From positions 1-64,000 of IMG/VR virus record IMGVR_UViG_3300028920_000041: a stretch of 64,000 nt of DNA; one strand, written 5' to 3'. Shown piece after piece: positions 1-49,337 of the stretch. The notes under the pieces are model-generated. The model ran no database searches and was not told the origin of the DNA. It was given only the letters and a program-made list of their open reading frames with translations. This DNA comes from a virus. Positions within the stretch are counted from its first letter, which is position 1, and the number at the start of each line of letters is the position of its first letter. Made by a program: the position numbers and the translations under genes.

Positions 1-22
1 GGGTATTAGTTTTAGATATTAC

Positions 23-51
23 TTGACATCAAACTGGAAGTGGTCTATAAG
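23..51 (+). promoter_or_regulatory. sigma70-type promoter
   Basis: TTGACA (23-28), 17-bp spacer, TATAAG (46-51), upstream of an AAGGGG RBS and ATG at 64. Confidence 0.7.
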
Positions 52-63
52 AAGGGGTTTCGA

Positions 64-366
64 ATGAGAGCTTTACGGATACGGATGGTAGGCAAGCAGG
101 ACGTTAATAAGGATGATTACTATTTTACGACTACTCATGTTCCTGCTTTAATCGATCTGAATCGTGCTGTGATACATTTTTATCCAGACGAAGAGGCAAA
201 TGGCCCTGGTTTTGGTGGCGAGTTAGTGGTCCGACACTACGACCCACACATGAAGGCCTCGGCTGTGCAGAAGTCTTATAGAAGGAGACGTAGAAAGACT
301 TCGTCAGACGATGCGACAGAGCCTGAAGATCAGAATTCGGAGGTTTTAGAGGAAGAAGACGAGTAG
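64..366 (+). CDS. hypothetical protein with basic patch and acidic C-terminus
   Basis: ORF 40..366; ATG 64 preferred because GTG 40 lies inside the promoter; RBS AAGGGG. Confidence 0.65.
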   Translation: MRALRIRMVGKQDVNKDDYYFTTTHVPALIDLNRAVIHFYPDEEANGPGFGGELVVRHYDPHMKASAVQKSYRRRRRKTSSDDATEPEDQNSEVLEEEDE

Positions 367-11975: not shown

Positions 11976-11976
11976 C

Positions 11977-12552
11977 ATGTCTTCAACAAGAGGTTTTAAA
12001 CTTCCGAGAGATGAGTACTTGACGCCTCGAAGGCTAGTCAAGGCTGCTATTATCAAGCTGCATAGATCTTATCCGGAGTTTAAGCCTCTTACGTGTCTTG
12101 AACCGGGCTGTTCTTGGGCTTCTCACCTGGATTATGCACAAGATACCTTCTCAACATTAATCTACACAGTAGGTGTTGACGTATTAGACCAACCCACACA
12201 CCCAAGCCATGAGTTTATGTGTCATGACTTCACAACATGGCAAACAGAAGACAAGTTTGATCTGATAGTAACGAATCCACCATTCGGACTAGCAGAAGAG
12301 TTCTTCTTAAAGTCAAAAAACTTGCTAACGCCAACAGGCATAGCAATGTTGTTTCAGCGAATTGGTTTTTTTGCTTCGAAGAAAAGAAGACACAACTTGT
12401 GGGGCGAGATTAACTTAAAGCAGGTATGGATCTGTACGACGCGGCCTGCGATGATAGGCCAGCCGTCTGCAGACTCTTGCGAGTACGCTTATTACGTGTT
12501 TGATGCTAATTTGCCTGAAGGGAAAGTTCGGCTGGATTGGCTGGATTGGTAA
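11977..12552 (+). CDS. putative N6-adenine DNA methyltransferase
   Basis: DEYLTP, LEPGCS (degenerate motif I), DLIVTNPPF (motif IV). Confidence 0.75.
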   Translation: MSSTRGFKLPRDEYLTPRRLVKAAIIKLHRSYPEFKPLTCLEPGCSWASHLDYAQDTFSTLIYTVGVDVLDQPTHPSHEFMCHDFTTWQTEDKFDLIVTNPPFGLAEEFFLKSKNLLTPTGIAMLFQRIGFFASKKRRHNLWGEINLKQVWICTTRPAMIGQPSADSCEYAYYVFDANLPEGKVRLDWLDW

Positions 12553-12829
12553 CTTTATCAGAACATGTGTCCTGACCAATGTTGCTAAGCAGATAGTGAA
12601 GCTGTACTATCTTTTTTGCTAAAGACACACCGCCCATGCCTGAAAGAGTCCATGTTGCCAGGCACAAGAAACCAGAGGCTAAGAGCAGTCTATTGGAGCA
12701 TCCCTTCTGACCGGGTTGCTGCGCTTGGGATTGCGCTGTCTGGTGTAGTACCTCCATAACCGATGTGATCTGATTCCCACAATTCTGGACCACTGAAGTG
12801 GGATTACAGGGTTTTGACGTAGCCATCAT
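12506..12829 (-). CDS. possible small hypothetical protein (uncertain)
   Basis: AGGAGG 4 nt upstream of ATG on the minus strand, but the product looks poorly protein-like and overlaps the MTase 3' end. Confidence 0.3.
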   Translation of the reverse strand: MMATSKPCNPTSVVQNCGNQITSVMEVLHQTAQSQAQQPGQKGCSNRLLLASGFLCLATWTLSGMGGVSLAKKIVQLHYLLSNIGQDTCSDKVTNPANPAELSLQAN

Positions 12830-12986
12830 GAAACCTCCTACGGACATCTATAGCACCGATATGAGGCTATTTCCAGGCCTCTTCTTTTCAGCTACTCTAA
12901 CCTACGAAAAATGTCCATAGATTATCACTAAATTTTATTGACAGCTATATATCTGCCTGCTACCTATGGTCGGTGGAGGGTTAGGC

Positions 12987-13157
12987 ATGATGCTGTCCAA
13001 AGAGAACCTGAGGAAAATGATCGGCCAGAACAGCAACACGAGGCAGCGCCTGGAGCAACTCAGGGCCGTAACGCTACAGCTCCTGGCGACACTCGATAGC
13101 CGACCGAAAAACCAGGCTCGCTCAGCCTATCCACTCCCAAACCTGATCGCATGCTGA
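12987..13157 (+). CDS. small helical hypothetical protein
   Basis: GGAGG RBS before ATG; TTGACA at 12938-12943 upstream. Confidence 0.45.
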   Translation: MMLSKENLRKMIGQNSNTRQRLEQLRAVTLQLLATLDSRPKNQARSAYPLPNLIAC

Positions 13158-13178
13158 ACTAGCTCCCCACCTGCGATA

Positions 13179-13534
13179 TTAGCTAGAATGTTCTTTCTGG
13201 CTAAATCTCTCCCCTGATCTGTCAAGCTTCCAAACACAAACTTAGCTAGAATCTACCTGGAAAACTTGATCCAGAAATGCAGCTCTTTGTCAAGAGCTGT
13301 GTTACTGGCTGTCTTGTCGTGTCTTGATGCAATGCAGATCATGCACACTGGCTTGGCAGGACTAGACAGGAACCGTGTCACTGGCCACTCTACTAGCCCG
13401 TACCCTGCTAGGTAATCCCTTGTAATGATTACAGTAATTTGCCTGGTATTTGTCCGACAAATGTCCTTGACTGGATAGTACTATCTGTGTGAAACTAAAA
13501 GGAAAAACTAAAATTTGTTAGATTGGGAATCCCA
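13179..13534. promoter_or_regulatory. palindrome- and repeat-dense control region
   Basis: TTAGCTAGAAT x2 (13179, 13242); dyads CAGCTCTT-N4-AAGAGCTG (13280-13299), TGTAAT-G-ATTACA (13421-13433), ATTTGTC-C-GACAAAT (13448-13462), GATAGTACTATC (13474-13485), TGGGA-A-TCCCA (13524-13534). Confidence 0.6.
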
Positions 13535-13539
13535 GCAAC

Positions 13540-13571
13540 GTCAACAACAGAGTCAACAACAGAGTCAACAA
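13540..13571 (+). repeat. 12-bp tandem repeat GTCAACAACAGA, about 2.7 copies, abutting the RBS
   Basis: GTCAACAACAGA GTCAACAACAGA GTCAACAA followed by GGAG. Confidence 0.85.
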
Positions 13572-13582
13572 GGAGATGAGAG

Positions 13583-14590
13583 ATGAGTAAGACCACGAAG
13601 CGCAACACCAAGTCCGTCCACAACAACCGTTACAGTGACGGTGCCTTTGTGATGTGGAGTGCCAGGCTCACTGCCGCAGCGATGTCCTCACAGGACATCA
13701 GAGACATGGCCAACGCGGCTGGTCTCCCGGAGTCCATTGTCCCTGACTATGCCGGGGACCGAGCAATATGCAGTAGGGTCATTGACAGGCATGCGAGCAA
13801 GCTCAAGCGCCAGGGTTACGTGCTGTCCAAGCTCAAGAGGACCAAGAGCCATGTGCTCATGACAATCCACGAAACCTCGCGGGACATTGCTGCGAGGGAG
13901 ACAGAGTTACCGCAGGCGGGCACCCTGGAATGGACTAGCGAGACAAACGGCATTGTCTCGCCAGAGCAGCACACCGTTGCCGATTACCTGGATTACCACT
14001 ATCAGGATGCAGTGGGCAAAATCCATGCAACGGATTGGTCTAGCACCCTGATTGCCTATTTGCAGGATGAATGCCTTGCACAGGCCTGGAGAGATGATGG
14101 TCGGGTTTACTGGGTCCCTCCGACCCATCTTGACAGAGTCAGAGAGCTACAGGATTGGCTACAGAGTGTTGGTGTGAGCCTGGCCGTTGCTGAGATTGAC
14201 GGCGCTGTCAGAGAGTCTGTGGTTGAGGTAGTCGAGGCCTCTTTGGTGGACCAATTGGATGAGCTGCAAGCCGAAGTGGATGGATTCAACGGCTTGCAGA
14301 AGCCAAGCACCTACGCCGACCGTATCGAGAGGTATCATGAGCTACGCAAACGCGTTACCGTGCATACAGAGTGCCTGGGTATCGCTAAGTCCACTGCTAA
14401 CAGCCTCCTAAAGCAACTCGAAGACATGGAAGTGACCGTAGTGCAGCACTTGGCAACCCGTGAGAACATCCGTGTCAAAAGGGATGGCACAATAGAGCAG
14501 TTGGCTCCGGCCACAGACGAGTATGAGGACTCCGAGGACGAAGAGACGGACAACGAAACCGATACTCCCGTTGTGTCGTTTGATTGGTAG
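13583..14590 (+). CDS. DUF6744-like protein
   Basis: GAFVMWS...AAGLPESIVP, RDDGRVYWVP, SLVDQLDELQAEV pattern recalled from the DUF6744 family; directly upstream of an AAA-VWA pair; acidic tail. Confidence 0.55.
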   Translation: MSKTTKRNTKSVHNNRYSDGAFVMWSARLTAAAMSSQDIRDMANAAGLPESIVPDYAGDRAICSRVIDRHASKLKRQGYVLSKLKRTKSHVLMTIHETSRDIAARETELPQAGTLEWTSETNGIVSPEQHTVADYLDYHYQDAVGKIHATDWSSTLIAYLQDECLAQAWRDDGRVYWVPPTHLDRVRELQDWLQSVGVSLAVAEIDGAVRESVVEVVEASLVDQLDELQAEVDGFNGLQKPSTYADRIERYHELRKRVTVHTECLGIAKSTANSLLKQLEDMEVTVVQHLATRENIRVKRDGTIEQLAPATDEYEDSEDEETDNETDTPVVSFDW

Positions 14591-14599
14591 GAGGGGACC

Positions 14600-15820
14600 A
14601 TGGCAACCAAAAAGAGTGCTAATAAGAAGACAACCAAGACGAACGGTATCCGTAAAAAAGTAACGGAATTTGTCATTGAATTGACAAAATGCCTCTTGGA
14701 ACGCGAGAGAGCGATAATGCTCGCCATGGTGGCCTTGTTGTCCAGAGAGCACTTGTTGTTGTTGGGTCCTCCAGGGGTTGCCAAGTCGCTATTGGTCCGC
14801 GAGATAACAAAGAGGATTGAAGGTAGCCAGTACTACGAACGCTTAATGAGCCAAACCACCGAGCCCAACGAAGTTTTCGGCCCAGTGGACTTGGCAGCGC
14901 TTAGTGACAGAGGCGAGTACCGCAGAGTCAGTAAGGGTGCGTTACAGACCGCCCATATTGGTTTTTTGGACGAGATATTCAAGGCTAACAGTACCATCTT
15001 GAATTGTCTGTTGACGCTAACCAACGAAAGACTGTACCACGAGGTTGGCTATGAGCCTCAACAGGCCCCACTACTGTCAATATTTGGGGCCAGCAACGAA
15101 ACACCGCAAGAGGACGAGTTAGGCGCGTTGTATGACCGGTTTCCCTTGAAGGTCGTGATTACCGATACGGTAGAGGAGTCCTCTTTTGAAGCTCTTGTGT
15201 TGGGTACCTTTGGCTCTACTGTCAAAAACACCATTACTGTTGACGATATCTTGGAAGCGCAGAAATTGTGTGACGCAGTAACAATACCCTCCGAAGTAGT
15301 TGAGGGGCTTAAACGCATTTGCCGTATCGAAGCCCCATCACAAGGGATCAGGGTGTCTGACCGTACCGTTGTCAAAGCCGCTAAAGTGCTCAAAGCAGCG
15401 GCCTGGTTGCGTGGTCGTAATGAGGTGATAGTAGAGGACTTGTCAATATTGGCTGATATGCTCTGGTCCGAACCAAAACAAATTAAAGCAGTTGAGCGTT
15501 TGGTCTACGAGGTTAGCAACCCACTACATCTCAGGGCAATTGAGACAGAGGACAGCGCTCGCGAAGTTTTTGGACAAATGCCGGATGATGATGCTGCCTG
15601 GCAGTCCAGCTATGACTCGTCCAAACGGACTGCGGAAAACGTAATTAAGCAGTTAGTTGATATGGATAACACTTTAGAGCGAGATATAGCGTCTAGTAAG
15701 GCCAGAGACAAGCGCAGAGCTTGGCAGTCCCTGCATGCGGTAAGAGAGCTACGCAAGCAAGCTGCTACAGTGCTTTACCGCAAAGCAGGCAAACAGTCCA
15801 CGCGCCTGGCGAGGGGCTGA
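14600..15820 (+). CDS. MoxR/RavA-family AAA+ ATPase
   Basis: LLLGPPGVAKS (Walker A), TEPNEVFGP, FLDEIFKANSTILNCLL (Walker B), ASNETP, LYDRF, VSDRTVVK. Confidence 0.92.
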   Translation: MATKKSANKKTTKTNGIRKKVTEFVIELTKCLLERERAIMLAMVALLSREHLLLLGPPGVAKSLLVREITKRIEGSQYYERLMSQTTEPNEVFGPVDLAALSDRGEYRRVSKGALQTAHIGFLDEIFKANSTILNCLLTLTNERLYHEVGYEPQQAPLLSIFGASNETPQEDELGALYDRFPLKVVITDTVEESSFEALVLGTFGSTVKNTITVDDILEAQKLCDAVTIPSEVVEGLKRICRIEAPSQGIRVSDRTVVKAAKVLKAAAWLRGRNEVIVEDLSILADMLWSEPKQIKAVERLVYEVSNPLHLRAIETEDSAREVFGQMPDDDAAWQSSYDSSKRTAENVIKQLVDMDNTLERDIASSKARDKRRAWQSLHAVRELRKQAATVLYRKAGKQSTRLARG

Positions 15821-15822
15821 CA

Positions 15823-17253
15823 ATGGGACTATGTTACAAAACTTCAACGTGGGCTGACCGATTGTGGTCTAGCCACGTTAAGCAGTCCCGACAGGCACAG
15901 GCTATTGTTAGTAGAGGAGAGGTTAAGCAGGGAGCTAGCTACAGCGGGTTCGCTAGCGACCTACACAGCAGATTGTACCTCAACAACGAGCCTGACAAGC
16001 TTAACAGTGGTCCAGACTGGGCGAGCAAACTGCATGAGTCAGCTAGTGACCTAGCGGAGTGGCGTCAACTCAAGTCGCGGTGTCGCCATGATGGGTTTGC
16101 CGCTGGCGTTGCTACAGAGGCAATCCTGTCGTGTCTGTCAGATCAGATACCCGATAGTAGCGATAGTGACAACTCCGACCCTGACACGTCAGAGCTACCC
16201 TATACGGATGCACCAGTGGTGCCTGGCCAGGCCAGCGGCCCCCCAGCGGCTTGGACGGACCAGAGTCCACCTGATGATGCTGACACCCGCCAGGCGCTTA
16301 GGCGGGCTGTCAGAGCGGCCAGAGATGCAGTGGTGGAGATAGACGCCAGTCTAGACGGTCTGCAGACTGCTCTAGGACTGCGCCGGCCAGGGACCGCTAT
16401 CGGGGAGCAAGCTACGTATCAGGATATAGATAAAATCAGAGAGGCACACCGGACAGTATCCCGGTCCCGCAACCTGCAGCAGATAGCAGAGCTAGCAGGC
16501 CGGTTCACGCGCTTGGCAGCAACCAAGCAGCGTAACAAAGTGCGCGGTAGCGTGGGCGCGGTCAAAGGGGTTGAGCTATCTGGTGACCTATCACGCGTGC
16601 TACCAAGCGAGCTAGCAGGCCTCAGAGGCAGCCGCTATGAGCGTTTGCTCACACTGGCCAAGTTGGTTGACAAGAGAGCGCTCTCCTATCGGTTGGAGGC
16701 TAAAGAGACCGAGGCCAGGGGTCCCGTAGTCATATGCACTGACCTATCAAGCTCTATGCGAGGGTCCAGAGACCTGTGGGCCAAAGCTTGCACGCTAGCC
16801 ATCCTGTCCACGGCCACTAGACAGCGTCGGGCCTGCACTGTGCTCGGCTTTGACCGGGCTATCAGGCATACAGACACTATCAGAGCCAGTGATACTACGG
16901 CCGATGATATTGACAGGGTACTATCGCATGCCCCGCGCGGAGGTACCGATTACAATCCTCCGCTTACAAAGGCTGCAGATATAATAGAGACAGATCATGT
17001 TATGTCTAAAGCTGACATTATCCTAATCACTGACGGCGAGGCATACCTGGATACTGAGGTTGCTACTAGATTGCAGAGCCTGACTACAGACCATGGTGTT
17101 AACATCTACGTCATAGCCATTGGCAACGAGGCGAGGGAAATACAGCAGGGACCACTGTCAAGGGTAGCAACGCGGCTAGCAGTGGTCGAGTCAACAGCAC
17201 TCGATACGGCCACAGACCCGGTCGTATTCGAGTCGGTAAATTTGGAGGGATAA
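15823..17253 (+). CDS. ViaA-like VWA (MIDAS) domain protein
   Basis: GVELSGDLSRVLPSEL, CTDLSSSM (DxSxS), GGTDYN, ILITDG; follows the RavA-like ATPase. Confidence 0.88.
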   Translation: MGLCYKTSTWADRLWSSHVKQSRQAQAIVSRGEVKQGASYSGFASDLHSRLYLNNEPDKLNSGPDWASKLHESASDLAEWRQLKSRCRHDGFAAGVATEAILSCLSDQIPDSSDSDNSDPDTSELPYTDAPVVPGQASGPPAAWTDQSPPDDADTRQALRRAVRAARDAVVEIDASLDGLQTALGLRRPGTAIGEQATYQDIDKIREAHRTVSRSRNLQQIAELAGRFTRLAATKQRNKVRGSVGAVKGVELSGDLSRVLPSELAGLRGSRYERLLTLAKLVDKRALSYRLEAKETEARGPVVICTDLSSSMRGSRDLWAKACTLAILSTATRQRRACTVLGFDRAIRHTDTIRASDTTADDIDRVLSHAPRGGTDYNPPLTKAADIIETDHVMSKADIILITDGEAYLDTEVATRLQSLTTDHGVNIYVIAIGNEAREIQQGPLSRVATRLAVVESTALDTATDPVVFESVNLEG

Positions 17254-41920: not shown

Positions 41921-42562
41921 ATGACACCCGAGCTAATCACACCAAAGCCGATCATATTCATACACATACCAAGAACTGGAGGTATGTCTTTCCGTAAGAT
42001 GATGCACATTGCTTACGGCTATGACAACATAGGTAGGCCATGGTGGGGTGAGCATGAAGGCGAGTACATAAACGATAAGCAGAAGTCTAAGAAAGCTTGG
42101 TATGGTCACTTCAAGTTTGGACTACATGAGCAGATACCTTTTCCAGTCAAATACTTCACTATAGTAAGAGAGCCAGCAGCTAGGTTGCTATCTGAGTATC
42201 ATAGAAACGAGTACAGGACTCGATATAACATGAGTCCATTGGACTTGGCTAGATCTGACAGAGGCAATAACATCATGGTTCGTATGCTATCAGGTGCGAA
42301 CATGACAGACACTCTAACGATACACCATGTAGATATCGCTATGGCCAACATAGAAGAGCACTTCGTTTTCGTTGGCCAGACAGAGAAGTTTTCTGACATT
42401 ATGCGAGTAGTAAAGCGCATGGGTTGGCCTGTATCGAAACAGCCTCATGAGAACACCGGTAAGACAGAAACGATAACACTGAATGAGTTGATAGATCTAA
42501 GGAAGCTACCAGAGCTTGCCTTGGACTATGAACTATACAGGAGGGTTGCCTATGCCTGGTAG
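41921..42562 (+). CDS. sulfotransferase family protein (Sulfotransfer_2-like)
   Basis: FIHIPRTGGMS (5'-PSB loop), FTIVREPAARLLSEY (3'-PB), NIMVRMLSG, FVFVGQTE. Confidence 0.8.
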   Translation: MTPELITPKPIIFIHIPRTGGMSFRKMMHIAYGYDNIGRPWWGEHEGEYINDKQKSKKAWYGHFKFGLHEQIPFPVKYFTIVREPAARLLSEYHRNEYRTRYNMSPLDLARSDRGNNIMVRMLSGANMTDTLTIHHVDIAMANIEEHFVFVGQTEKFSDIMRVVKRMGWPVSKQPHENTGKTETITLNELIDLRKLPELALDYELYRRVAYAW

Positions 42563-43100
42563 AGTAGAGTCCATTCGACAAGTACTAAGGTCTACGTTAC
42601 TGGAGTCAACACAAGATTTTTCGAAGATGTCTAAGGATCAGCTAAAGGATGCACGTCAGATGTATCAAGACGTTATTTCCATGAATAAATCCAAGGGAAG
42701 GCCTATAAAGCAGTACTACCTTGATAATTTGAGTAGTATTGAGGCTCTTCTTTCAGGCAAGCCTAGTGGTCAAGGTGTTACTAGCGATCCTTCAGTGTTT
42801 GGGCATCCACAGCAAACTAGCCATCCTAAGTATAGAAACTTGGTTCCTGTCAAAGTAAAAACCAAGGCACAGGTTCAGAAGTTCATAGACAAAGCACAGA
42901 AGTCTTATGATTCAATAATGACTAAATGGTCTAAGGAAGAGGCTATTGCTTTAGGTAGAATCAAGGCAACACCGACACGAAGAGCTAAAGCCAAGAGAGC
43001 TATCAAGTCAAGAGACTGGATTGATCTGAAAAGCTATGCAGAGCTTATCAGAGATGAGACAATGAAAGAGCTTCAGAGGCTTTACAAGTTGGCGGGATAA
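42552..43100 (+). CDS. basic putative virion cargo protein (motif B leader)
   Basis: MPGRVESIRQVLRSTLLE leader. Confidence 0.65.
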   Translation: MPGRVESIRQVLRSTLLESTQDFSKMSKDQLKDARQMYQDVISMNKSKGRPIKQYYLDNLSSIEALLSGKPSGQGVTSDPSVFGHPQQTSHPKYRNLVPVKVKTKAQVQKFIDKAQKSYDSIMTKWSKEEAIALGRIKATPTRRAKAKRAIKSRDWIDLKSYAELIRDETMKELQRLYKLAG

Positions 43101-43112
43101 AGAGAGAGACCT

Positions 43113-43703
43113 ATGCCTGGTAAAGTAGAGTCCATTCGACAAGTACTCAGAGAGTCCCTTTTGAAAGAAGCCAATGATTGGGATGGTCGTTCTACAATGT
43201 TTGGACACCTTCCAAGCCAAGATCTATACTTCTCTCCAGTTGAGAAGCTAAAAAACGGTAACTACAAGGGCTATATGGTTGATGTGAGTTCGGGCCGACC
43301 AAAGAAGGCCAAACAGACCAGTATGAACAAGCGTTGGTGGTCAGAGTCCTGGAAGATAATCAGTCAAAGCGAAGTTCCAAAAACGGTGCTTAGCAAGTTT
43401 TCAGACAAAATCGAATTACAAGCGCAGAAGGCCAGCGAACCAAAGGCAGCACCAACACCTGTTAATGTTAAGTCACCGGACAAGCTCTTGACGCAGAGAC
43501 AAGCCAGGGTAGGGCTCAGAGTAGATACAGATCCAGAGAGTGAAAGCAGTAGTTGGGTGATTCGGCGTATGACAAACAAGTCTGTTACCATTGGCTCTGA
43601 TAGTGGGGTTGACGTTGGACCAAAGTTTGCTGGAAGGACATTCATGTATCGTTGGGACGGTACAGGGTTTGTTAGACAAAAACAGTACCTCTATGCGGTG
43701 TGA
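43113..43703 (+). CDS. putative virion cargo protein (motif B leader)
   Basis: MPGKVESIRQVLRESLLKE leader; first 38 nt nearly identical to the previous gene. Confidence 0.65.
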   Translation: MPGKVESIRQVLRESLLKEANDWDGRSTMFGHLPSQDLYFSPVEKLKNGNYKGYMVDVSSGRPKKAKQTSMNKRWWSESWKIISQSEVPKTVLSKFSDKIELQAQKASEPKAAPTPVNVKSPDKLLTQRQARVGLRVDTDPESESSSWVIRRMTNKSVTIGSDSGVDVGPKFAGRTFMYRWDGTGFVRQKQYLYAV

Positions 43704-44497
43704 CGATGCCTGATACGGTTCAAGAGTCCATTAGAGACTCTCTGAGAGCAACGCTACTTGAGGGAAGACCTGTCCCTATCAAGAAAGCCTATCTGAAAAG
43801 GCTAGCTAGGTCTCTATTTGATGAAATGTACAAAAGGTGGCTCAAACCATTTCACTTAAAGAAGCGGGATCGACCAACCAGTATATTGTTCATTGGGAGT
43901 AAAGATGGGATCCCAAGTCACCATACTATAGAGTTTACAGAGTTAGCTGGCCCCTGGAAGGGTCGCAAGAGGCAAGTTCCCATTGTCTTCCAGTTAGGAG
44001 GAACAGGGAATTTTGTAAGAAAGTACATCACAGGTGGCGGTGTCTATAGTGTGAGGCAGGGTAAACGTAGTGTTTCTAAGTACATGATCTATCTTAATAT
44101 AGCTGATACTCTTATTCTGGATTTTGTCAAGAACAAGAAACAAGTTATAGATGAGTTTTACTCTGTTTTGATACACGAAGCAACACACCTAGCAGATCAA
44201 CTCCCTAGAGTTGCTTCTGATGCAGATAACGAAGACCTAAAAATCTACTACAATAAGCCAACAGAAGTCAGAGCGTTCATGCAGCAGATTGTTGATGAAG
44301 TAGTTGCACACGCTAGGTCCATAGCGAAAGACCTTGAAGGCTTCACTGACACAGAACAGCTTGTCAGATTGTCTCTTGAGCGAAGCACGACATGGGACAG
44401 AGTCAGACCCTACGTCAACCCAAGCAACAAAAGGAAGATACTGAAAGCTGTTCATGGAGTCATAGACAGAGCCAATCTTCCAGCTAGGTATGAGTGA
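43700..44497 (+). CDS. zincin-like metallopeptidase with motif B leader
   Basis: VQESIRDSLRATLLEG leader; VLIHEATHLAD (HExxH); YYNKPTEVRAF. Confidence 0.7.
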   Translation: MTMPDTVQESIRDSLRATLLEGRPVPIKKAYLKRLARSLFDEMYKRWLKPFHLKKRDRPTSILFIGSKDGIPSHHTIEFTELAGPWKGRKRQVPIVFQLGGTGNFVRKYITGGGVYSVRQGKRSVSKYMIYLNIADTLILDFVKNKKQVIDEFYSVLIHEATHLADQLPRVASDADNEDLKIYYNKPTEVRAFMQQIVDEVVAHARSIAKDLEGFTDTEQLVRLSLERSTTWDRVRPYVNPSNKRKILKAVHGVIDRANLPARYE

Positions 44498-47400
44498 TGC
44501 CTGACAGAGATAAGTGGATCTATGGTAAGGGCCAGTCAAAGTCCACTGGACTCTATAAAGACGTAACGTATGCCTCAAAAGGCAGTCAACCTCACTCTAC
44601 TACTCCAGATGACTGGCCATGGTCCAAAGAAGCCAAAAAGAAGTATGGTAAGAACATAGCATTCAACAAGCCATTGCCTGAAGTGTCAGACGATGAAGAT
44701 GTTGAAGCATGGTTCAAGCGTGTTGAAAAAGAACGCAAAGAACGAGAGAGACGCTATAAGCGTGAAGTCAAGTTAGGCACAGAATGGAAGACAAGAAACC
44801 TTGACTGGATCGCAGTCCTGCCTGATGCAAGTCACCCGGGCAAGGTCCGTATACAGCGCTATGATGAAGATGGCTTCTCAGGACATACTACGTTTGACAA
44901 TCTACAGAAGCTAGTGGCCTATCTCATTGAATGGGAAACATCACTAAAGAAGGCCAACGGCACTATGGACAAGTTCAGCAAGACAGCCCGATGGAAACGA
45001 GGCATGAAAAGACTAGCAGCGTTTCACACCAAAGAGTCTAGTGTTGAAGATCTTGTTGATAGGATAGACCAGTTACTTGAGAGAGCGGCGCGAATAAAGC
45101 CTATCCTTATGTTCCATGGTACGGCTTCCAAGAATCTTCGTTCAATACTCAAAAAAGGCTTTGTGCCGAATCCTAAAGAAAGGGTTTGGCAAGATGATCC
45201 AAATGCGGCACAGTCCTACCAGACAGTTACTAGAAAGACTGTAGGAGGTACCTATTTCTCTACTAACTTAAACGTAGCTACATCATCAGCATTAACAGCA
45301 GCACAAAAGTCCAAATCAGAGCAGTTGGTTATTGTTGCCAAGATACAGCCGAGAAGTGGTTATGCTGATGAAGACGACATTATTCATGATGCAAAACGCG
45401 GTATGAAGAAAGCCATGTTTCCATCTGGCCACATAGGGCATGAGGAAGCCTGGCCGCGGCGGTGGATAGAATTTGTTACGAGTCCGGGTGAAGCAAAGAA
45501 AGCTATCCAGAAGTTTGCTAAAGAGTTCAAGGTAGGTCTTGAGGCAGATCTACCTCAAGTAAAAAAGATACCCTTAGCTCCAAAAGCAGTAGAAGATATG
45601 TTTTGGGGTCTTTTAGAGCAAGTTGTAGCAAAGTGGTACTCGTATAACAAAAAGATGCCGTATGGTGCAGACTACTACGCAGCTACTAAGAGACTGAATC
45701 TCAGTAGAGAGCAAGAGCACAAGTACTATGCGTTGGTCTTGAAAAGGCTAAAGAGAGTCAGTTTGCAGAAGGCAGAAAAGCGCTACCTTAGTGCTGCAGA
45801 TAAGCTAACCAGACAGTTAAGCAAGTTAGCTATACCGAAGCCAGATGCTTTTAGAACGAATGTGAGGATCACAGACCCTGTCAACTTCAGGGGTAAGAAC
45901 AAGATTATTGCTGTGTTTGAGATGCGTAGTGGTGAGGACTATAAAGAAGATATCAAAGTCCACTATGGTAAGATCCCTTCAGAGGTAAAGAGCGCTCTTA
46001 ACCAGAATCTTGGGGACTGGCGTGAGGTTGATAAGTTTGAAACGTCTAGTTGGTGGACTAAGGCAAATAATGAGTCTGCTATGACTTTTTCAGATCCAAA
46101 GACGACACAAGAAAAGAAAGCTCTGAAGATGAACCGAAAGAAGTCAGAACAACAGCTCATCTCGAAGATTCAGAGCTTCATAGGTGACACTAATGAGGAA
46201 ACTCGACATAATACTAGGGTTCATGTTCGCTATGATAACAGCAGCACTGATCTACATAATCATGTCACTGAACTAGCAATAGGCAAGTTCAACTGGAAGC
46301 CTCTAAGAGATACGCCTATCGGTCCAGTCAAAGGCTATGAAGCAACCGGTTCGCTAAAGGGTAGGGCGAAGATTGAAAAGCGAAAAGTTGGAAGAGCACA
46401 GCGCTGGTTTTTGGTGTTGGATGGTAAGGACTATCCAATGCCTGGCAAGAAAGCGTCACTGGACCATGCCGAAGGGACTATAAAGAAAATGCTAGAATCA
46501 ACAGCCCTAGATCTTATTGAGCAAGTCATTCAAGGCGAAAGTCCATCGGAGTTGATTGAAAAGGTCAGCTACGCTTATGACATTCGACTTGACCAGAACA
46601 TACGAACTGGACCCGTGGTAAAGCTCACTAGCGGTCATTTCGGCGTAGCGAGTGCTCACAACTACGCCACAGAGTATGTGTGCGAAGCTAAGAAGGTCAA
46701 AGCAGTATGGTCGAAAGGTGCTACCAGAGCTTCTATAAGAAAGTGGCCTTTGACTGGCCGTAAAGCAGACCAATACAAAGATGGTACTTGGGCATGGGTA
46801 ACAAAGCTTGTCGATAATTGGAGTTCATCCAGTACGCGAAGACCTAAGCTTGTGATCAATGTTTTGGTATGGGACATGGATGGTAAACCTGTGCATAAAA
46901 AGCTTGGGCAGGAATTCACAGCGAAGGACTTAAAGGCAGCAAAGAGCTATGCAAAGAAGCTTATAGAGGATGGATTGTCTAGAATGACTAGTGTTGAGGG
47001 TAGGGTTATTATGCCTTATGAAGAAGATCAAATTGTTAATTTTGGGACTTTCGAACCTGCTAGGTCGTATGGGGAGGCGTTGAACGAAGTACGTAAGAAG
47101 CGAACACCATTCTATCAGATGGGTAAGGATGCTTTTGAGTCAGGTGTCAAGAGTCCAGCACCTATACTCAATAAGAAGGTGTTTGGTAAGATCTCAAAGA
47201 TAAAGTCAGACAAAGAACGTATGAAAGCAATGAAGGACTATCAAGATGGATGGCAACAAGCCAACCTAGATTCTCCACTTTCAGAGTCTATTGATGAAGC
47301 TAAGGGTAAGAAGCGCAAGGTTGGTGGTAGAATGGAGTATGCTCTAAGAGCTGCAGCAGATCATGGTATTACTGCCGGTGGTTCTTTTGCTTCATTTTCC

Positions 47401-47511
47401 TTGTTTCACAAAATGAGGGAAGCAGAGCTTATACATCCTCCAGGTTCAGGAGCTTGGAAGATCACAGATAAAGGTAAGCAAGCGCTCAAAGATGGGTTCT
47501 ACTACGCTTGA
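44494..47511 (+). CDS. 1005-aa multidomain protein containing an ADP-ribosyltransferase-fold (HGT...YFS) domain
   Basis: LMFHGTASKNLRSILKKGF...GGTYFSTNLNVA...LVIVAKI; internal motif B (DLVDRIDQLLE) and motif A (DLIEQVIQGESPSELIE). Confidence 0.65.
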   Translation: MMPDRDKWIYGKGQSKSTGLYKDVTYASKGSQPHSTTPDDWPWSKEAKKKYGKNIAFNKPLPEVSDDEDVEAWFKRVEKERKERERRYKREVKLGTEWKTRNLDWIAVLPDASHPGKVRIQRYDEDGFSGHTTFDNLQKLVAYLIEWETSLKKANGTMDKFSKTARWKRGMKRLAAFHTKESSVEDLVDRIDQLLERAARIKPILMFHGTASKNLRSILKKGFVPNPKERVWQDDPNAAQSYQTVTRKTVGGTYFSTNLNVATSSALTAAQKSKSEQLVIVAKIQPRSGYADEDDIIHDAKRGMKKAMFPSGHIGHEEAWPRRWIEFVTSPGEAKKAIQKFAKEFKVGLEADLPQVKKIPLAPKAVEDMFWGLLEQVVAKWYSYNKKMPYGADYYAATKRLNLSREQEHKYYALVLKRLKRVSLQKAEKRYLSAADKLTRQLSKLAIPKPDAFRTNVRITDPVNFRGKNKIIAVFEMRSGEDYKEDIKVHYGKIPSEVKSALNQNLGDWREVDKFETSSWWTKANNESAMTFSDPKTTQEKKALKMNRKKSEQQLISKIQSFIGDTNEETRHNTRVHVRYDNSSTDLHNHVTELAIGKFNWKPLRDTPIGPVKGYEATGSLKGRAKIEKRKVGRAQRWFLVLDGKDYPMPGKKASLDHAEGTIKKMLESTALDLIEQVIQGESPSELIEKVSYAYDIRLDQNIRTGPVVKLTSGHFGVASAHNYATEYVCEAKKVKAVWSKGATRASIRKWPLTGRKADQYKDGTWAWVTKLVDNWSSSSTRRPKLVINVLVWDMDGKPVHKKLGQEFTAKDLKAAKSYAKKLIEDGLSRMTSVEGRVIMPYEEDQIVNFGTFEPARSYGEALNEVRKKRTPFYQMGKDAFESGVKSPAPILNKKVFGKISKIKSDKERMKAMKDYQDGWQQANLDSPLSESIDEAKGKKRKVGGRMEYALRAAADHGITAGGSFASFSLFHKMREAELIHPPGSGAWKITDKGKQALKDGFYYA

Positions 47512-48632: not shown

Positions 48633-48977
48633 ATGGACTTGGTAGATCGCATCCAAGAGTTCTTAGAGGAAGACTTGAGGACTCTTTTCCCAAAAAGACA
48701 GTTCAAAGGATGGAAGTCAAGCAAGAGCAAAAAAGACTTCATTTGGTACACCAAAGGAGATTATGTCTTCAGGCTCGAAGATGATGGTAATGCTGTGTCT
48801 ATCTTTTTGCAGTGGCCTGCATCGTTAGGTGATAGATTCGTTCCATCCGGCCGTAGTTGGATGGCAAGCAAGTCTGGCAACAAGTACTCTTTGTCTACTG
48901 ACTCCGATGAAGAGACTTGGAGTGATGATGTAGCTACCTTGAAAAAGATCATGAAACTGTTTATCTCCAAGGCGTAA
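48633..48977 (+). CDS. small putative cargo protein (motif B leader)
   Basis: MDLVDRIQEFLEE; GGAG RBS. Confidence 0.6.
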   Translation: MDLVDRIQEFLEEDLRTLFPKRQFKGWKSSKSKKDFIWYTKGDYVFRLEDDGNAVSIFLQWPASLGDRFVPSGRSWMASKSGNKYSLSTDSDEETWSDDVATLKKIMKLFISKA

Positions 48978-48983
48978 TCAAAG

Positions 48984-49337
48984 ATGAGAGTATCTGCAAA
49001 ACTGCATCAGTCAATCCAGGCTCTAGGTCTTATGCTAGAGTTGAATCGAGTAGCACAGTCAAGGTCGTTTGATGAAGCGAAGCAGCAATTAGCAGATCTA
49101 AAGAGCAAGGCTAAGCAGAACTTCAAAGAGCTATCGCTAAAGCATCATCCCGATGTTGGTGGTGATGAAGAAACCATGAAGCTACTATCTGCAGCGTATG
49201 ACGAGATCAAGAAAGTTGACATAAAACAAGCACAGCCAAGGCCTGTTGCTCAAGTGGTTCGTGTTTATTGTGGTGGTGTGTACTCAACAACTAGCACTTG
49301 GCCCACAGGCAGCACAACCTCAACAAGCGGTTGGTGA
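48984..49337 (+). CDS. J-domain (DnaJ-like) protein
   Basis: AKQNFKELSLKHHPDVGGDEETMKLLSAAYDEI (HPD motif). Confidence 0.85.
   Translation: MRVSAKLHQSIQALGLMLELNRVAQSRSFDEAKQQLADLKSKAKQNFKELSLKHHPDVGGDEETMKLLSAAYDEIKKVDIKQAQPRPVAQVVRVYCGGVYSTTSTWPTGSTTSTSGW

Follow-up and report, generated by a model that had tools for sequence, protein, structure and literature searches.

The gene at positions 44497 to 47511 (+ strand) of the window, a 64,000-nucleotide stretch of viral DNA, appears to encode a chain of swappable basic effector modules with acidic leaders. From sequence comparison we consider it moderately probable that this chain is packaged in the phage head, cut by a protease and injected, with an NAD-using ADP-ribosyltransferase (ART) as one of its modules. 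Head loading, cutting and injection are probable since the acidic tags that join the modules are of a kind that stands at the beginning of single proteins in related phages. Comparison favors the modular leader-plus-cargo logic proposed in the first-pass annotation, as three of the modules occur elsewhere as leader-bearing single proteins.

Gene structure and order of the modules

The open reading frame (44494 to 47511, + strand) lies where the first-pass annotation had placed it, and the His codon (45115), the Tyr codon (45253), the GYADEDD stretch and both leader motifs were also correctly located. Translation probably begins with the ATG at 44497 and not with the GTG at 44494 that was set mechanically, because the identical database copy (P0002, 1004 aa) and the close homologues have the same start (MPDRDKW opens all three) and because the ATG overlaps the stop codon of the upstream gene (TGATG). 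From this ATG the product has 1004 aa, a mass of 114 kDa, a net charge of +57 and a pI of 9.7. A 72-kb contig of the likely source run contains the complete gene, and near-identical fragments are present in a second study. The source phage is uncultured, from marine sediment and distantly T4-like, with a contig of 120.9 kb.

All segments listed here with window coordinates are on the + strand. The N-terminal block (44497 to 44682, aa 2–63, ending LPE63) is kept in an alignment of four close homologues with the pattern MPDRDKW...DWPWSKE..KYGKN; a search for shorter relatives of this block found none, and the protein's own N-terminus is not leader-like. The same kind of alignment revealed a variable slot, V1 (44683 to 45036, aa 64–181), which in homologue P0005 is filled by a Tad3 (anti-Thoeris) domain (E 7.5e-12, 45.5 bits vs. 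a cut-off of 27) and in P0003 by a different body. Motif B and the ART domain follow, and then a second variable slot, V2 (46075 to 46488, aa 528–665), which is basic (pI 10) and for which no match to known families was found. Beyond motif A lies a conserved mini-module (46567 to 46686, aa 692–731), seen in the alignment, that begins SYAYDIRLDQNI, ends V-C-E731 and forms the C-terminal end of homologues P0004 and P0005. The basic module V3 (46687 to 47088, aa 732–865) is homologous to stand-alone proteins; its model has a core pLDDT of 80–90, and a structural search gave no informative fold match. After L-N-E865 comes V4 (47089 to 47298, aa 866–935), a basic segment of low model confidence that ends S-I-D-E935, followed by a C-terminal winged-helix-like module (47299 to 47508, aa 936–1005, AKGKKRKVGG...KDGFYYA) with a weak match to Pfam Mrr_N (E 0.0024). 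This last module is common to the target and P0003 and is also found in P0158, directly after an N-terminal motif A. A Pfam search of the target (E <= 1) returned weak PARP and Mrr_N matches only, and a PHROGs search returned no match. As first claimed, the modules are basic (pI 9.6–10) and motifs A and B acidic (pI about 4).

A predicted ADP-ribosyltransferase fold in the central module

Residues 180–530 were modelled by AlphaFold from a 61-sequence alignment with a pLDDT of 90.4 and a pTM of 0.85 (model m4508c663ffcd). When the ART model was compared with 48,161 chains by VIA-align, the top match was the NAD lobe of TkoKptA (9ld3_A; Z 9.8, rmsd 2.6 Å, 85 aligned residues, 22% identity), followed at ranks 2–42 by PARP16, pertussis toxin, mouse Tpt1, Arr, PARP13/15/10/1/2, DarT and diphtheria toxin. 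ART-fold chains made up about 40 of the top 42 rows, with Z of 5–7.4 for matches of the PARP, Arr and diphtheria toxin type, and Foldseek returned PARP1 and Tpt1 at a probability of 0.9 or more. The family profile matched Tpt1 chains (E 2e-5) and E. coli KptA (hhalign probability 95.2%), and the model contains the split β-sheet core, divided into two units of three strands, and the NAD-binding strand-helix element (strands at model positions 25–112 and 277–313). Taken together, the confident model and its matches support the ADP-ribosyltransferase fold claimed by the first-pass annotation, here assigned to aa 197–521. The accompanying claim that the domain is not Alt-like also stands, as the family profile showed no sequence relation to T4 Alt (hhalign probability 0.2%), a member of the R-S-E branch of ARTs.

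The first β unit (45082 to 45375, aa 197–294), delimited by the model, structural matches and conserved columns, carries His208-Gly-Thr (45115), Trp232, Arg247, Tyr254 (45253) and Asp292-Glu293-Asp294 (Glu at 45370). It is followed by an insert of six long helices according to DSSP of the model (45376 to 45831, aa 295–446), which the structural alignments skip (22..112, then 277..314 in model numbering); this family-specific insert may read the target of the enzyme. The second β unit (45832 to 46056, aa 447–521, ending SWW521), delimited by the same evidence, has Arg458 and Ile471 invariant and Gly467, Asn469, Tyr491 and Gly492 near-invariant. An ART had been placed at aa 200–330, where part of it indeed lies, but the full unit spans aa 197–521; since the insert of about 150 aa splits the β core, a construct of aa 200–330 would be without the second half of the sheet. 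Nor is the domain bounded by leader motifs as had been stated, because a 138-aa variable module (V2) lies between its end (about aa 521–527) and motif A.

At E <= 0.001 the family comprises 744 clusters, which are almost entirely metagenomic. Most members are stand-alone proteins of about 310 aa, fusions to NUDIX, to ART-PolyVal or to a second ART occur in others, and no Pfam model is dedicated to the family. The target scored 17.6–20.2 bits against Pfam PARP (PF00644), under the cut-off of 26.7, yet three homologues passed it (P0003 and P0005 with 27.6 and P0015 with 41 bits), so the target is a relative of the PARP family and not a curated member. Pfam PTS_2-RNA stayed below its cut-off in the tested proteins, covering profile positions of about 77–126 only, and a PF01885 search of the whole contig gave no match.

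Active-site residues

The His of FHGT (His208, 45115–45117) is part of an H-G-T that is at least 90% conserved among 61 diverse members and aligns with the HGT of Tpt1 and E. coli KptA. The Tyr of GGTYFST (Tyr254, 45253–45255) is invariant in these members and located on model strand 74–77. In GYADEDD (aa 289–295) the residues D292-E293-D294 are also invariant; they follow model strand 110–112 and provide one candidate for the catalytic Glu. The strand that usually carries this Glu falls near the invariant R458 and the near-invariant N469, a placement given by PARP1 and diphtheria toxin alignment ranges and not at residue level, and from these ranges no Glu could be placed on it in the target. 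As the classical Glu position seems to lie near R458/N469, the triad of the modelled domain may not be H-Y-E. Of the proposed H-Y-E type, the His, the Tyr and the fold of the His-Tyr side are thus retained, while the Glu is not established; the data support placing the ART on the His-Tyr side of the superfamily, together with PARP, diphtheria toxin, Arr and Tpt1.

Acidic leaders and candidate junctions

Motif A (46489 to 46566, aa 666–691) is an acidic helix-Gly-helix that ends L-I-E689, and its recurrence within the target, as first reported, was evident from an HMM score of 21.7 bits vs. a maximum of 7.5 bits in 30 shuffled proteomes. The HMM found seven instances in seven proteins of the 120.9-kb contig (19.7–27.8 bits). 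The internal copy is conserved in close homologues whereas its flanks vary, which argues against a decaying relic. In several contig proteins the motif lies mid-protein or near the C-terminus, which means that it does not act as a removable N-terminal propeptide in every case. Motif B (45037 to 45081, aa 182–196; VEDLVDRIDQLLE is aa 184–196) is an acidic helix ending L-L-E196, and its sequence and position predict a leader with a cut site before the ART. Its only other copy in the contig (48633 to 48671, MDLVDRIQEFLEE) is the N-terminus of an unrelated 114-aa neighbour (ORF 48633–48977; 11.5 bits vs. a null maximum of 7.9). The first-pass annotation had lumped two different motifs under this name: the MPG-type N-termini of three upstream ORFs are separate, as an HMM built from them gave no match to the target. 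As a sequence pattern, a short portable leader ending in aliphatic-x-Glu is therefore present in seven contig proteins for motif A and in two for motif B.

The x-x-E junctions that had been proposed were too loosely defined, since [LI]-x-E was not enriched above chance (10 in the target vs. 7.5 +/- 2.5 in shuffles) and DTNEET falls in a variable stretch without comparative support. Such support is confined to three junctions: LLE196/RA before the ART, VCE731/AKK before V3 and IDE935/AKGKK before the winged helix. In the ART family, 118 of 147 members have an h-x-E located 5–18 residues (mode 11) upstream of the His, with Leu or Ile at P3 and Arg, Ala or Lys at P1'. The E-[RA]-K at 11 residues from the His is retained in embedded ART members as well; instead of a cut site, it could be an N-terminal cap that is intrinsic to the ART domain. 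The junctions coincide with low-confidence stretches of the models and are probably flexible.

Single-module relatives and phage head context

The ART, the 135-aa V3-type module and the C-terminal winged helix are each found elsewhere as a single protein that opens either with motif A or with a tag resembling that of T4 IPII/IPIII; h-x-E and then A/S-K come next. Motif A precedes the ART in P0010, P0124 and P0142, the winged helix in P0158 and the V3 body in P0153, P0154, P0155 and P0156; P0157 has the V3 body with a short motif remnant. These five stand-alone V3 homologues (135–259 aa, 53–57% identity) all have h-x-E followed by A/S-K-K. In IMG/VR contig L008 a stand-alone ART lies amid 5–7 unrelated genes that all start MK[IV]xE[IF][IL]xE[AS], a start found neither in shuffles nor in four control loci. 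The T4 IPII/IPIII start, MKTYQEFIAE/A, has the same grammar, and this tag serves in core targeting and is cut off by gp21 (PMC3012670, PMC5694885).

At positions 70938–73902 the same contig encodes a Peptidase_S77 (E 8.3e-17) and a Gp23-type capsid protein (E 2.8e-57), 23 kb downstream of the target and on the same strand, which supports a T4-type head context. The N-terminus of the capsid protein aligns with the T4 gp23 propeptide, and L-x-E sites are present.

Proposed pathway and alternative explanations

By analogy with the T4 capsid-targeting sequence, the motif A and motif B leaders would attach the precursor to the prohead core. The S77 prohead protease of the phage, which is of gp21 type, could then cut after Glu at the aliphatic-x-Glu module starts, at LLE196/RA, at LIE689/K and/or VCE731/AKK, and at IDE935/AKGKK, perhaps also at LPE63, NNE527 and LNE865. 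The freed basic pieces would remain associated with the packaged DNA and be delivered into the host along with it. The central piece (aa 197–521, about 38 kDa) is modelled as an ART-fold enzyme whose nearest relatives in the His-Tyr branch are KptA/Tpt1 and PARP. With NAD+ as substrate, it most likely would ADP-ribosylate a host macromolecule at an early stage of infection, possibly a protein or a nucleic-acid phosphate end. The adjoining slots would provide other early-acting modules, such as the winged-helix DNA binder or, in a close homologue, Tad3.

It is rather unlikely that the target represents the classical polyvalent type, which would pass through head and injection as one full-length chain or be processed by a non-prohead protease, with internal leaders that serve docking only or are retained as linkers of fused cassettes. 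ART-bearing polyvalent proteins have been described as virion-embedded multidomain effectors, some of them unprocessed, e.g. the N4 virion RNA polymerase (PMC5512222); P0061 has an ART-PolyVal domain beside this family's ART, and the missing enrichment of L/I-x-E sites points in the same direction. However, the target has no embedded peptidase, and aliphatic-x-Glu followed by a small or basic residue is the grammar of S77 proteases (PMC5694885, PMC10052503), which sits exactly at the leader-to-body switch of the single-module relatives. A 114-kDa chain of seven loosely linked parts would also be an easy substrate in a protease-filled prohead.

An unpackaged cytoplasmic multidomain enzyme, e.g. 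of a KptA-like RNA-end or an NAD pathway, with the helices as structural elements or fusion remnants, seems improbable. The closest solved relative, KptA/Tpt1, is an RNA-repair enzyme encoded by some jumbo phages (PMC9503650), and some relatives of the target have NUDIX fusions. Among cultured phages a homologue is present only in Stenotrophomonas phages RAS14 and CM1, where it is amid nucleotide-metabolism genes and not head genes. Against this, the KptA NAD lobe alone is matched, and the target gene belongs to a block of motif-bearing genes, all on one strand, that lies upstream of those for the protease and the capsid protein. Furthermore, the N-terminal tags of the stand-alone relatives are common to unrelated neighbour genes, which argues against a structural ART helix. 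Finally, a mainly structural or DNA-condensing internal head protein, with an ART module that is catalytically inactive or restricted to the binding of NAD or ADP-ribose, would fit the strongly basic modules, as in T4 internal proteins, the unplaced classical Glu and the Gln376 that replaces a near-invariant family Arg in the target and close homologues. It is quite improbable, however, as the target and the 744-cluster family as a whole retain the His, the Tyr, the D-E-D loop, Arg458 and Asn469, implying selection on an active site.

Comparison with known systems

KptA/Tpt1 is both the best structural and the best sequence match, over the strand-helix element with His-Gly-Thr, the sequence alignment spanning only about 30 residues. 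The N-terminal winged-helix RNA lobe of KptA/Tpt1 carries the Arg-His-Arg of the catalytic tetrad; of the two lobes only the NAD lobe aligns (9ld3_A residues 91–180), and the target lacks the RNA-binding N-lobe, has a Tyr at the second His of KptA, and possesses the 150-aa helical insert and extra C-terminal strands. With PARP, Arr and diphtheria toxin it shares His-Gly-Thr and Tyr at the expected strands, but it is without the helical regulatory domain and acceptor loop of PARP.

Like T4 with IPI/IPII/IPIII and Alt, the phage has a head module with an S77 protease and a gp23-type capsid protein, and basic cargo with an acidic amphipathic tag, N-terminal in T4, that ends in aliphatic-x-Glu before Ala/Ser; stand-alone ART relatives start MKVNEIIQE/AKF vs. 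MKTYQEFIAE/A in T4. In Alt, as predicted for the target, the packaged cargo is an ART, although of the R-S-E branch and unrelated in sequence. T4 proteins have one N-terminal tag each, whereas the tags of the target are internal with several cargoes per chain, and motif A, with about 21 aa, exceeds the T4 tag (10 aa) in length. In the giant phages SPN3US, phiKZ and 201phi2-1, gp21-like proteases process ejection-protein precursors, and many head-internal proteins are cut after Glu in small/aliphatic-x-Glu, sometimes at several sites per chain, with propeptides of 20–250 residues (PMC5694885, PMC10052503). Sites of this type are predicted in the target, but the giant-phage cuts take N-terminal propeptides off a single mature body, whereas our comparisons suggest several independent bodies per chain.

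The polyvalent proteins that phages and conjugative elements encode (Iyer, Burroughs, Anand, de Souza, Aravind 2017, PMC5512222) are likewise long chains of several unrelated early-acting conflict domains (2–15), frequently with an ART. They are predicted to travel in the virion, with Myovirus-type phages favored. In the target, the ART, V3 and winged helix occur independently elsewhere, and Tad3 occupies a homologue slot. Differences are that an embedded peptidase, whether MuF, zincin-like or other, and a Pfam ART-PolyVal match are absent from the target, that its ART belongs to a separate, unnamed family, and that its modules are punctuated by internal leaders of capsid-targeting type, N-terminal in related phages, which would imply release by the prohead protease and not by an embedded peptidase. 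Together with the head-packaged phage ARTs (PMC9503650), this suggests that the target is a variant of a known polyvalent / head-packaged ART theme, with cleavage, packaging and NAD use as its predicted properties.

Gene, contig and genomic setting

The ORF at 44494-47511 (+) claimed by the first-pass annotation is present. An ATG at 44497, directly after the GTG, overlaps the stop of the upstream gene (TGATG), and MPDRDKW is the N-terminus of the database copy and of three homologues; judged from these start sites, the product is therefore most likely 1004 aa long. The gene lies on a 120,930-bp virus contig from marine-sediment metagenomes (completeness ~57%, CheckV), the first 64 kb of which make up the window. 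An assembly chimera was ruled out, since a 72-kb contig from what is likely the source run contains the stretch unbroken and a second study has near-identical fragments without indels; the architecture is also common to three homologues.

All long genes of the contig are on one strand. Genes for a family-B DNA polymerase, SbcCD and a DNA ligase are located upstream of the target, and downstream (contig 70938-73902) are those for a prohead protease (Peptidase_S77, T4 gp21-type), extended at its C-terminus by a long stretch, and for a major capsid protein of the Gp23 type, with the tail sheath after the capsid gene. The protease gene (contig 70938-72437, or L002:6938-8437 in locus numbering) is outside the window and encodes 499 aa, with the protease domain at aa 40-190; the C-terminal tail of ~300 aa is acidic and helical and resembles a fused scaffold. 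The capsid protein N-terminus can be aligned to the T4 gp23 propeptide (LLEG.LPE) and has L-x-E sites. No close cultured phage was found at the DNA level, and PF03420 had no match in fragment G001 (18% complete), a result that counts neither for nor against. PHROGs has no family that matches the target. Related loci were found neither in viral and metagenome contigs with an alignment of the target and its close homologues, nor with a 61-sequence ART-family alignment, which has no conserved stretch, nor with the database protein P0153. The 64-kb window lacks the T4 late-promoter box TATAAATA, and around the target gene there is no enrichment of sigma-70-like promoters or terminators.

Immediately upstream, and in translational coupling with the target, is a 265-aa ORF at 43700-44497 (+). 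Its leader is of the MPD type, and an HExxH motif (LIHEATHLAD) suggests a zinc metallopeptidase-like cargo; Pfam and PHROGs have no match for it. A sulfotransferase-family protein is encoded among the putative cargo genes at 41921-42562 (+) (Pfam Sulfotransfer_2, E 2.4e-7; phrog_3347), and within the block of motif-bearing genes a small ORF at 48984-49337 (+) has a J-domain-like HPD motif (Pfam DnaJ, E 0.001, under the cut-off).

An ADP-ribosyltransferase-fold domain with a helical insert

An ADP-ribosyltransferase (ART) fold had been proposed from the sequence, and this claim stands. The AlphaFold model of aa 180-530 has a pLDDT of 90.4 and a pTM of 0.85, and its best structural match by VIA-align is the NAD lobe of Thermococcus KptA (Z 9.8, rmsd 2.6 Å over 85 residues, 22% identity). 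Ranks 2-42 of the same search are essentially all ART-fold chains, including PARP16, pertussis toxin, mouse Tpt1, Arr, PARP13/15/10/2/1, heat-labile toxin, Scabin, DarT and diphtheria toxin. Foldseek against the PDB returned no row at E ≤ 0.001 and gave PARP1 and Tpt1 at a probability of 0.9 or more; what supports the ART call is VIA-align, together with the profile searches and the composition of the list. At the head of the BFVD list were uncharacterised proteins, from Vibrio phage nt-1 and Bacillus phage G. The KptA RNA lobe is absent, and the domain is therefore not a KptA orthologue. Foldseek rank 1 for the same model was a pre-ejectosome chain of cyanophage A4 (PDB 9k3a_B; E 1.4e-2, poor TM-score; VIA Z 4.6 over 143 residues), a likeness that may be due to chance or may reflect an ART-like ejection protein.

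The structural alignments cover model residues 22 to ~112 and then 277-314, and since they skip 112-277 the beta core is split by a 150-residue helical insert. With this insert, the unit of aa ~200-330 delimited earlier gives way to a predicted folding unit of aa 197-521. The positions of His208 (45115), Tyr254 (45253), GYADEDD (aa 289-295) and of the two short acidic leader-like tags, motif B (aa 184-196) and motif A (aa 666-691), had been placed correctly. As for the proposed H-Y-E signature, the His and the Tyr are borne out, both being aligned and conserved, and the Glu has two candidate sites: the invariant D-E-D loop (D292-E293-D294), or the usual Glu strand, which the alignment ranges against PARP1 and diphtheria toxin place near Arg458 or Asn469.

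Pfam gives only a weak PARP match for the target (E 0.003, aa 200-229), and three homologues with 41-72% identity exceed or come close to the PARP and Tpt1 thresholds; phmmer with the single target sequence found no match in the PDB. A HMMER search with aa 180-530 against 1.84 billion representatives returned 744 clusters at E ≤ 0.001 (422 at E ≤ 1e-10), most of them ~300-350 aa long and matched along the whole 330 residues. Trp232, Tyr254, Asp292-Glu293-Asp294, Arg458 and Ile471 are invariant in the 61-sequence alignment, and His208-Gly-Thr, Arg247, Gly467, Asn469 and Tyr491-Gly492 are conserved in at least 90%. The family profile matched Tpt1 chains (E 2e-5) and E. coli KptA (hhalign 95.2%, 28 columns aligned), while T4 Alt reached 0.2%, in agreement with the earlier view that the domain is not Alt-related. 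Five members (P0016, P0050, P0061, P0089 and P0040) are fused to NUDIX, ART-PolyVal, DUF4116 repeats or DUF5661, and some of these have two ART copies.

Leader motifs and junction sites

An HMM of motif A found seven instances in the contig (19.7-27.8 bits, compared to at best 7.5 bits in 30 shuffled proteomes), all at 40-70 kb, upstream of the protease gene. The motif is N-terminal in one protein and central or near the C-terminus in others, and each instance terminates in aliphatic-x-Glu. Motif B of the target has one further copy, with which the unrelated ORF 48633 begins. Upstream, three ORFs in a row (42516-43100, 43113-43703 and 43700-44497, all +), unrelated in other respects, have a common MPG/MPD...V(E/Q)SIR..L...LLE N-terminus, scoring 25-28 bits with its own HMM (null maximum 7.8); these were rejected as copies of motif B, their motif being distinct. 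For the x-x-E junctions listed in the first-pass annotation the number proved uninformative, as the target has 10 L/I-x-E sites compared to 7.5 ± 2.5 in shuffles. Bare counts of x-x-E or L-x-E were rejected as evidence, and position alone matters. The bodies of the target are basic (pI 9.6-10), the leaders acidic (pI about 4), and the junctions are in lower-confidence regions of the models.

In four close homologues, aa 1-60, 187-521 and 673-727 are conserved and the stretches between them are replaced wholesale. The first variable slot of P0005, one of these homologues, holds a Tad3 domain (aa 99-158, E 7.5e-12); Tad3 is a phage inhibitor of the Thoeris protein ThsB (type I Thoeris; PMC13728456). 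In another, P0003, this slot is filled by a different body, which contains an LYHGT motif of its own. Directly after motif A there is a 40-residue piece (aa 692-731, window 46567-46686) that is among the best-conserved parts of the four homologues. This piece forms the C-terminal end of two homologues, and no function was found for it. Internal motif A is conserved between flanks that vary, which argues that it would still work in the fused state.

Bodies and leaders also occur outside the target. When aa 660-1005 was searched among shorter proteins, five proteins of 135-259 aa had a body 53-57% identical to the basic module V3 (aa 732-865); four of them start with motif A, and the fifth, P0157, keeps a short remnant. 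In P0158 motif A is followed directly by the C-terminal winged-helix module of the target. In all six the switch from leader to body is aliphatic-x-Glu followed by Ala/Ser-Lys-Lys, and at the matching points the target reads VCE731/AKK and IDE935/AKGKK. The ART-family members P0010, P0124 and P0142 have motif A directly before the domain, and aliphatic-x-Glu is found 5-18 residues (mode 11) before the His in 118 of 147 members, with Leu or Ile at P3 in 90 and Arg, Ala or Lys at P1' in 99.

In L008, an IMG/VR jumbo-phage fragment, a stand-alone ART begins MKVNEIIQE/AKF, and unrelated neighbours begin MKINEILTE/S, MKINEFLSE/A, MKIKEIVVE/S and MKIVDFVSE/A. The strict tag pattern is present in 5/22 ORFs of this fragment, and was not seen in 200 shuffles or four control loci. 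Because unrelated neighbours carry the same tags, the tags are, on sequence grounds, portable signals and not part of the ART fold. T4 IPII and IPIII begin MKTYQEFIAE/A, and related proteases of giant phages likewise cleave behind the Glu of small-x-Glu motifs, frequently at several positions in one chain (PMC10052503). At L008:2380-3851 and 10001-15841, 5-7 clustered genes have an MK[IV]xE[IF][IL]xE[AS] N-terminus, in what looks like an internal-protein gene cluster; it includes a protein whose GNHR motif is ParB-like, along with two further proteins of the HGT/HFT type (195 and 295 aa). Only two cultured phages, Stenotrophomonas phages RAS14 and CM1, carry an ART-family homologue; it is stand-alone and begins MKIQTLLQLLNE/AETKP, an L-N-E/A tag. 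RAS14 encodes an S77 protease, and its ART homologue sits among nucleotide-metabolism genes.

A candidate cassette polyprotein

The target is best read, from its sequence organisation, as several leader-plus-cargo cassettes fused in one frame, in the order N-block with V1 (aa 64-181); motif B and ART; V2 (aa 528-665); motif A, the conserved 40-residue piece and V3; V4 (aa 866-935); and the winged helix. The S77 protease would cleave the protein, and the pieces would stay in the head and be injected.

Tentatively, and with somewhat less than even confidence, we extend this to a prohead-protease-decoded effector polyprotein, drawn from a cassette library of uncultured T4-like jumbo phages. Each internal leader would direct the chain to the prohead core and also show the S77 protease where to release the next cargo, and the ART would be a widespread injected enzyme. 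Such a library would contain the new KptA/PARP-like ART family, Tad3, winged helix, NUDIX and unknown folds, either free-standing or strung together in one ORF, and the ART would act on a new target, possibly a nucleic-acid end.

Several observations qualify the cassette reading. Embedded ART members, too, retain the E-[RA]-K element that precedes the His, and this element may cap the domain. The N-terminus of the target itself is unlike a leader, motif A is N-terminal in only part of its proteins, and in RAS14 the homologue has nucleotide-metabolism genes around it. A search for shorter relatives of aa 1-183 found none. The model of aa 660-1005 has a pLDDT of 59, with 80-90 in the V3 core; a fold search with it matched nothing to V3, and all its rows were helical look-alikes of the N-terminal helices, where confidence is low. 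ESM Atlas had no usable match for aa 1-183 and aa 690-1005, and neither Pfam, PHROGs, ESM Atlas nor fold search assigned a family or fold to the N-block, V1, V2, V3 or V4.

Significance and relation to known systems

In contractile-tail phages, ARTs packaged in the head and polyvalent effectors are predicted to be common, and to our knowledge T4 Alt is the only one with bench studies. The ART family described here combines its 744 clusters and the lack of a Pfam model with a confident structural model and clear active-site candidates. The grammar of leaders and putative cut sites could allow the virion cargo of uncultured phages to be predicted from sequence alone, and may provide a design rule by which a single gene loads several foreign proteins into a T4-type capsid. 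Through the Tad3 module of a sister protein, the slots have a direct link to known anti-defence functions.

Published work describes virion-embedded polyvalent proteins that include ART domains, and puts forward the idea that ARTs are often packaged by Myoviruses (PMC5512222, PMC9503650). The family shares the polyvalent theme, as members are fused to ART-PolyVal, NUDIX or a second ART. In contrast to the published polyvalent and head-packaged ARTs, it is nearest to KptA/PARP, has a helical insert and is without a Pfam model. The target also differs from polyvalent proteins in having no embedded peptidase or MuF; instead it uses internal leaders of the capsid-targeting type, with predicted cut sites that fit a prohead protease. 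With the T4 internal proteins it has in common basic bodies and acidic leaders.
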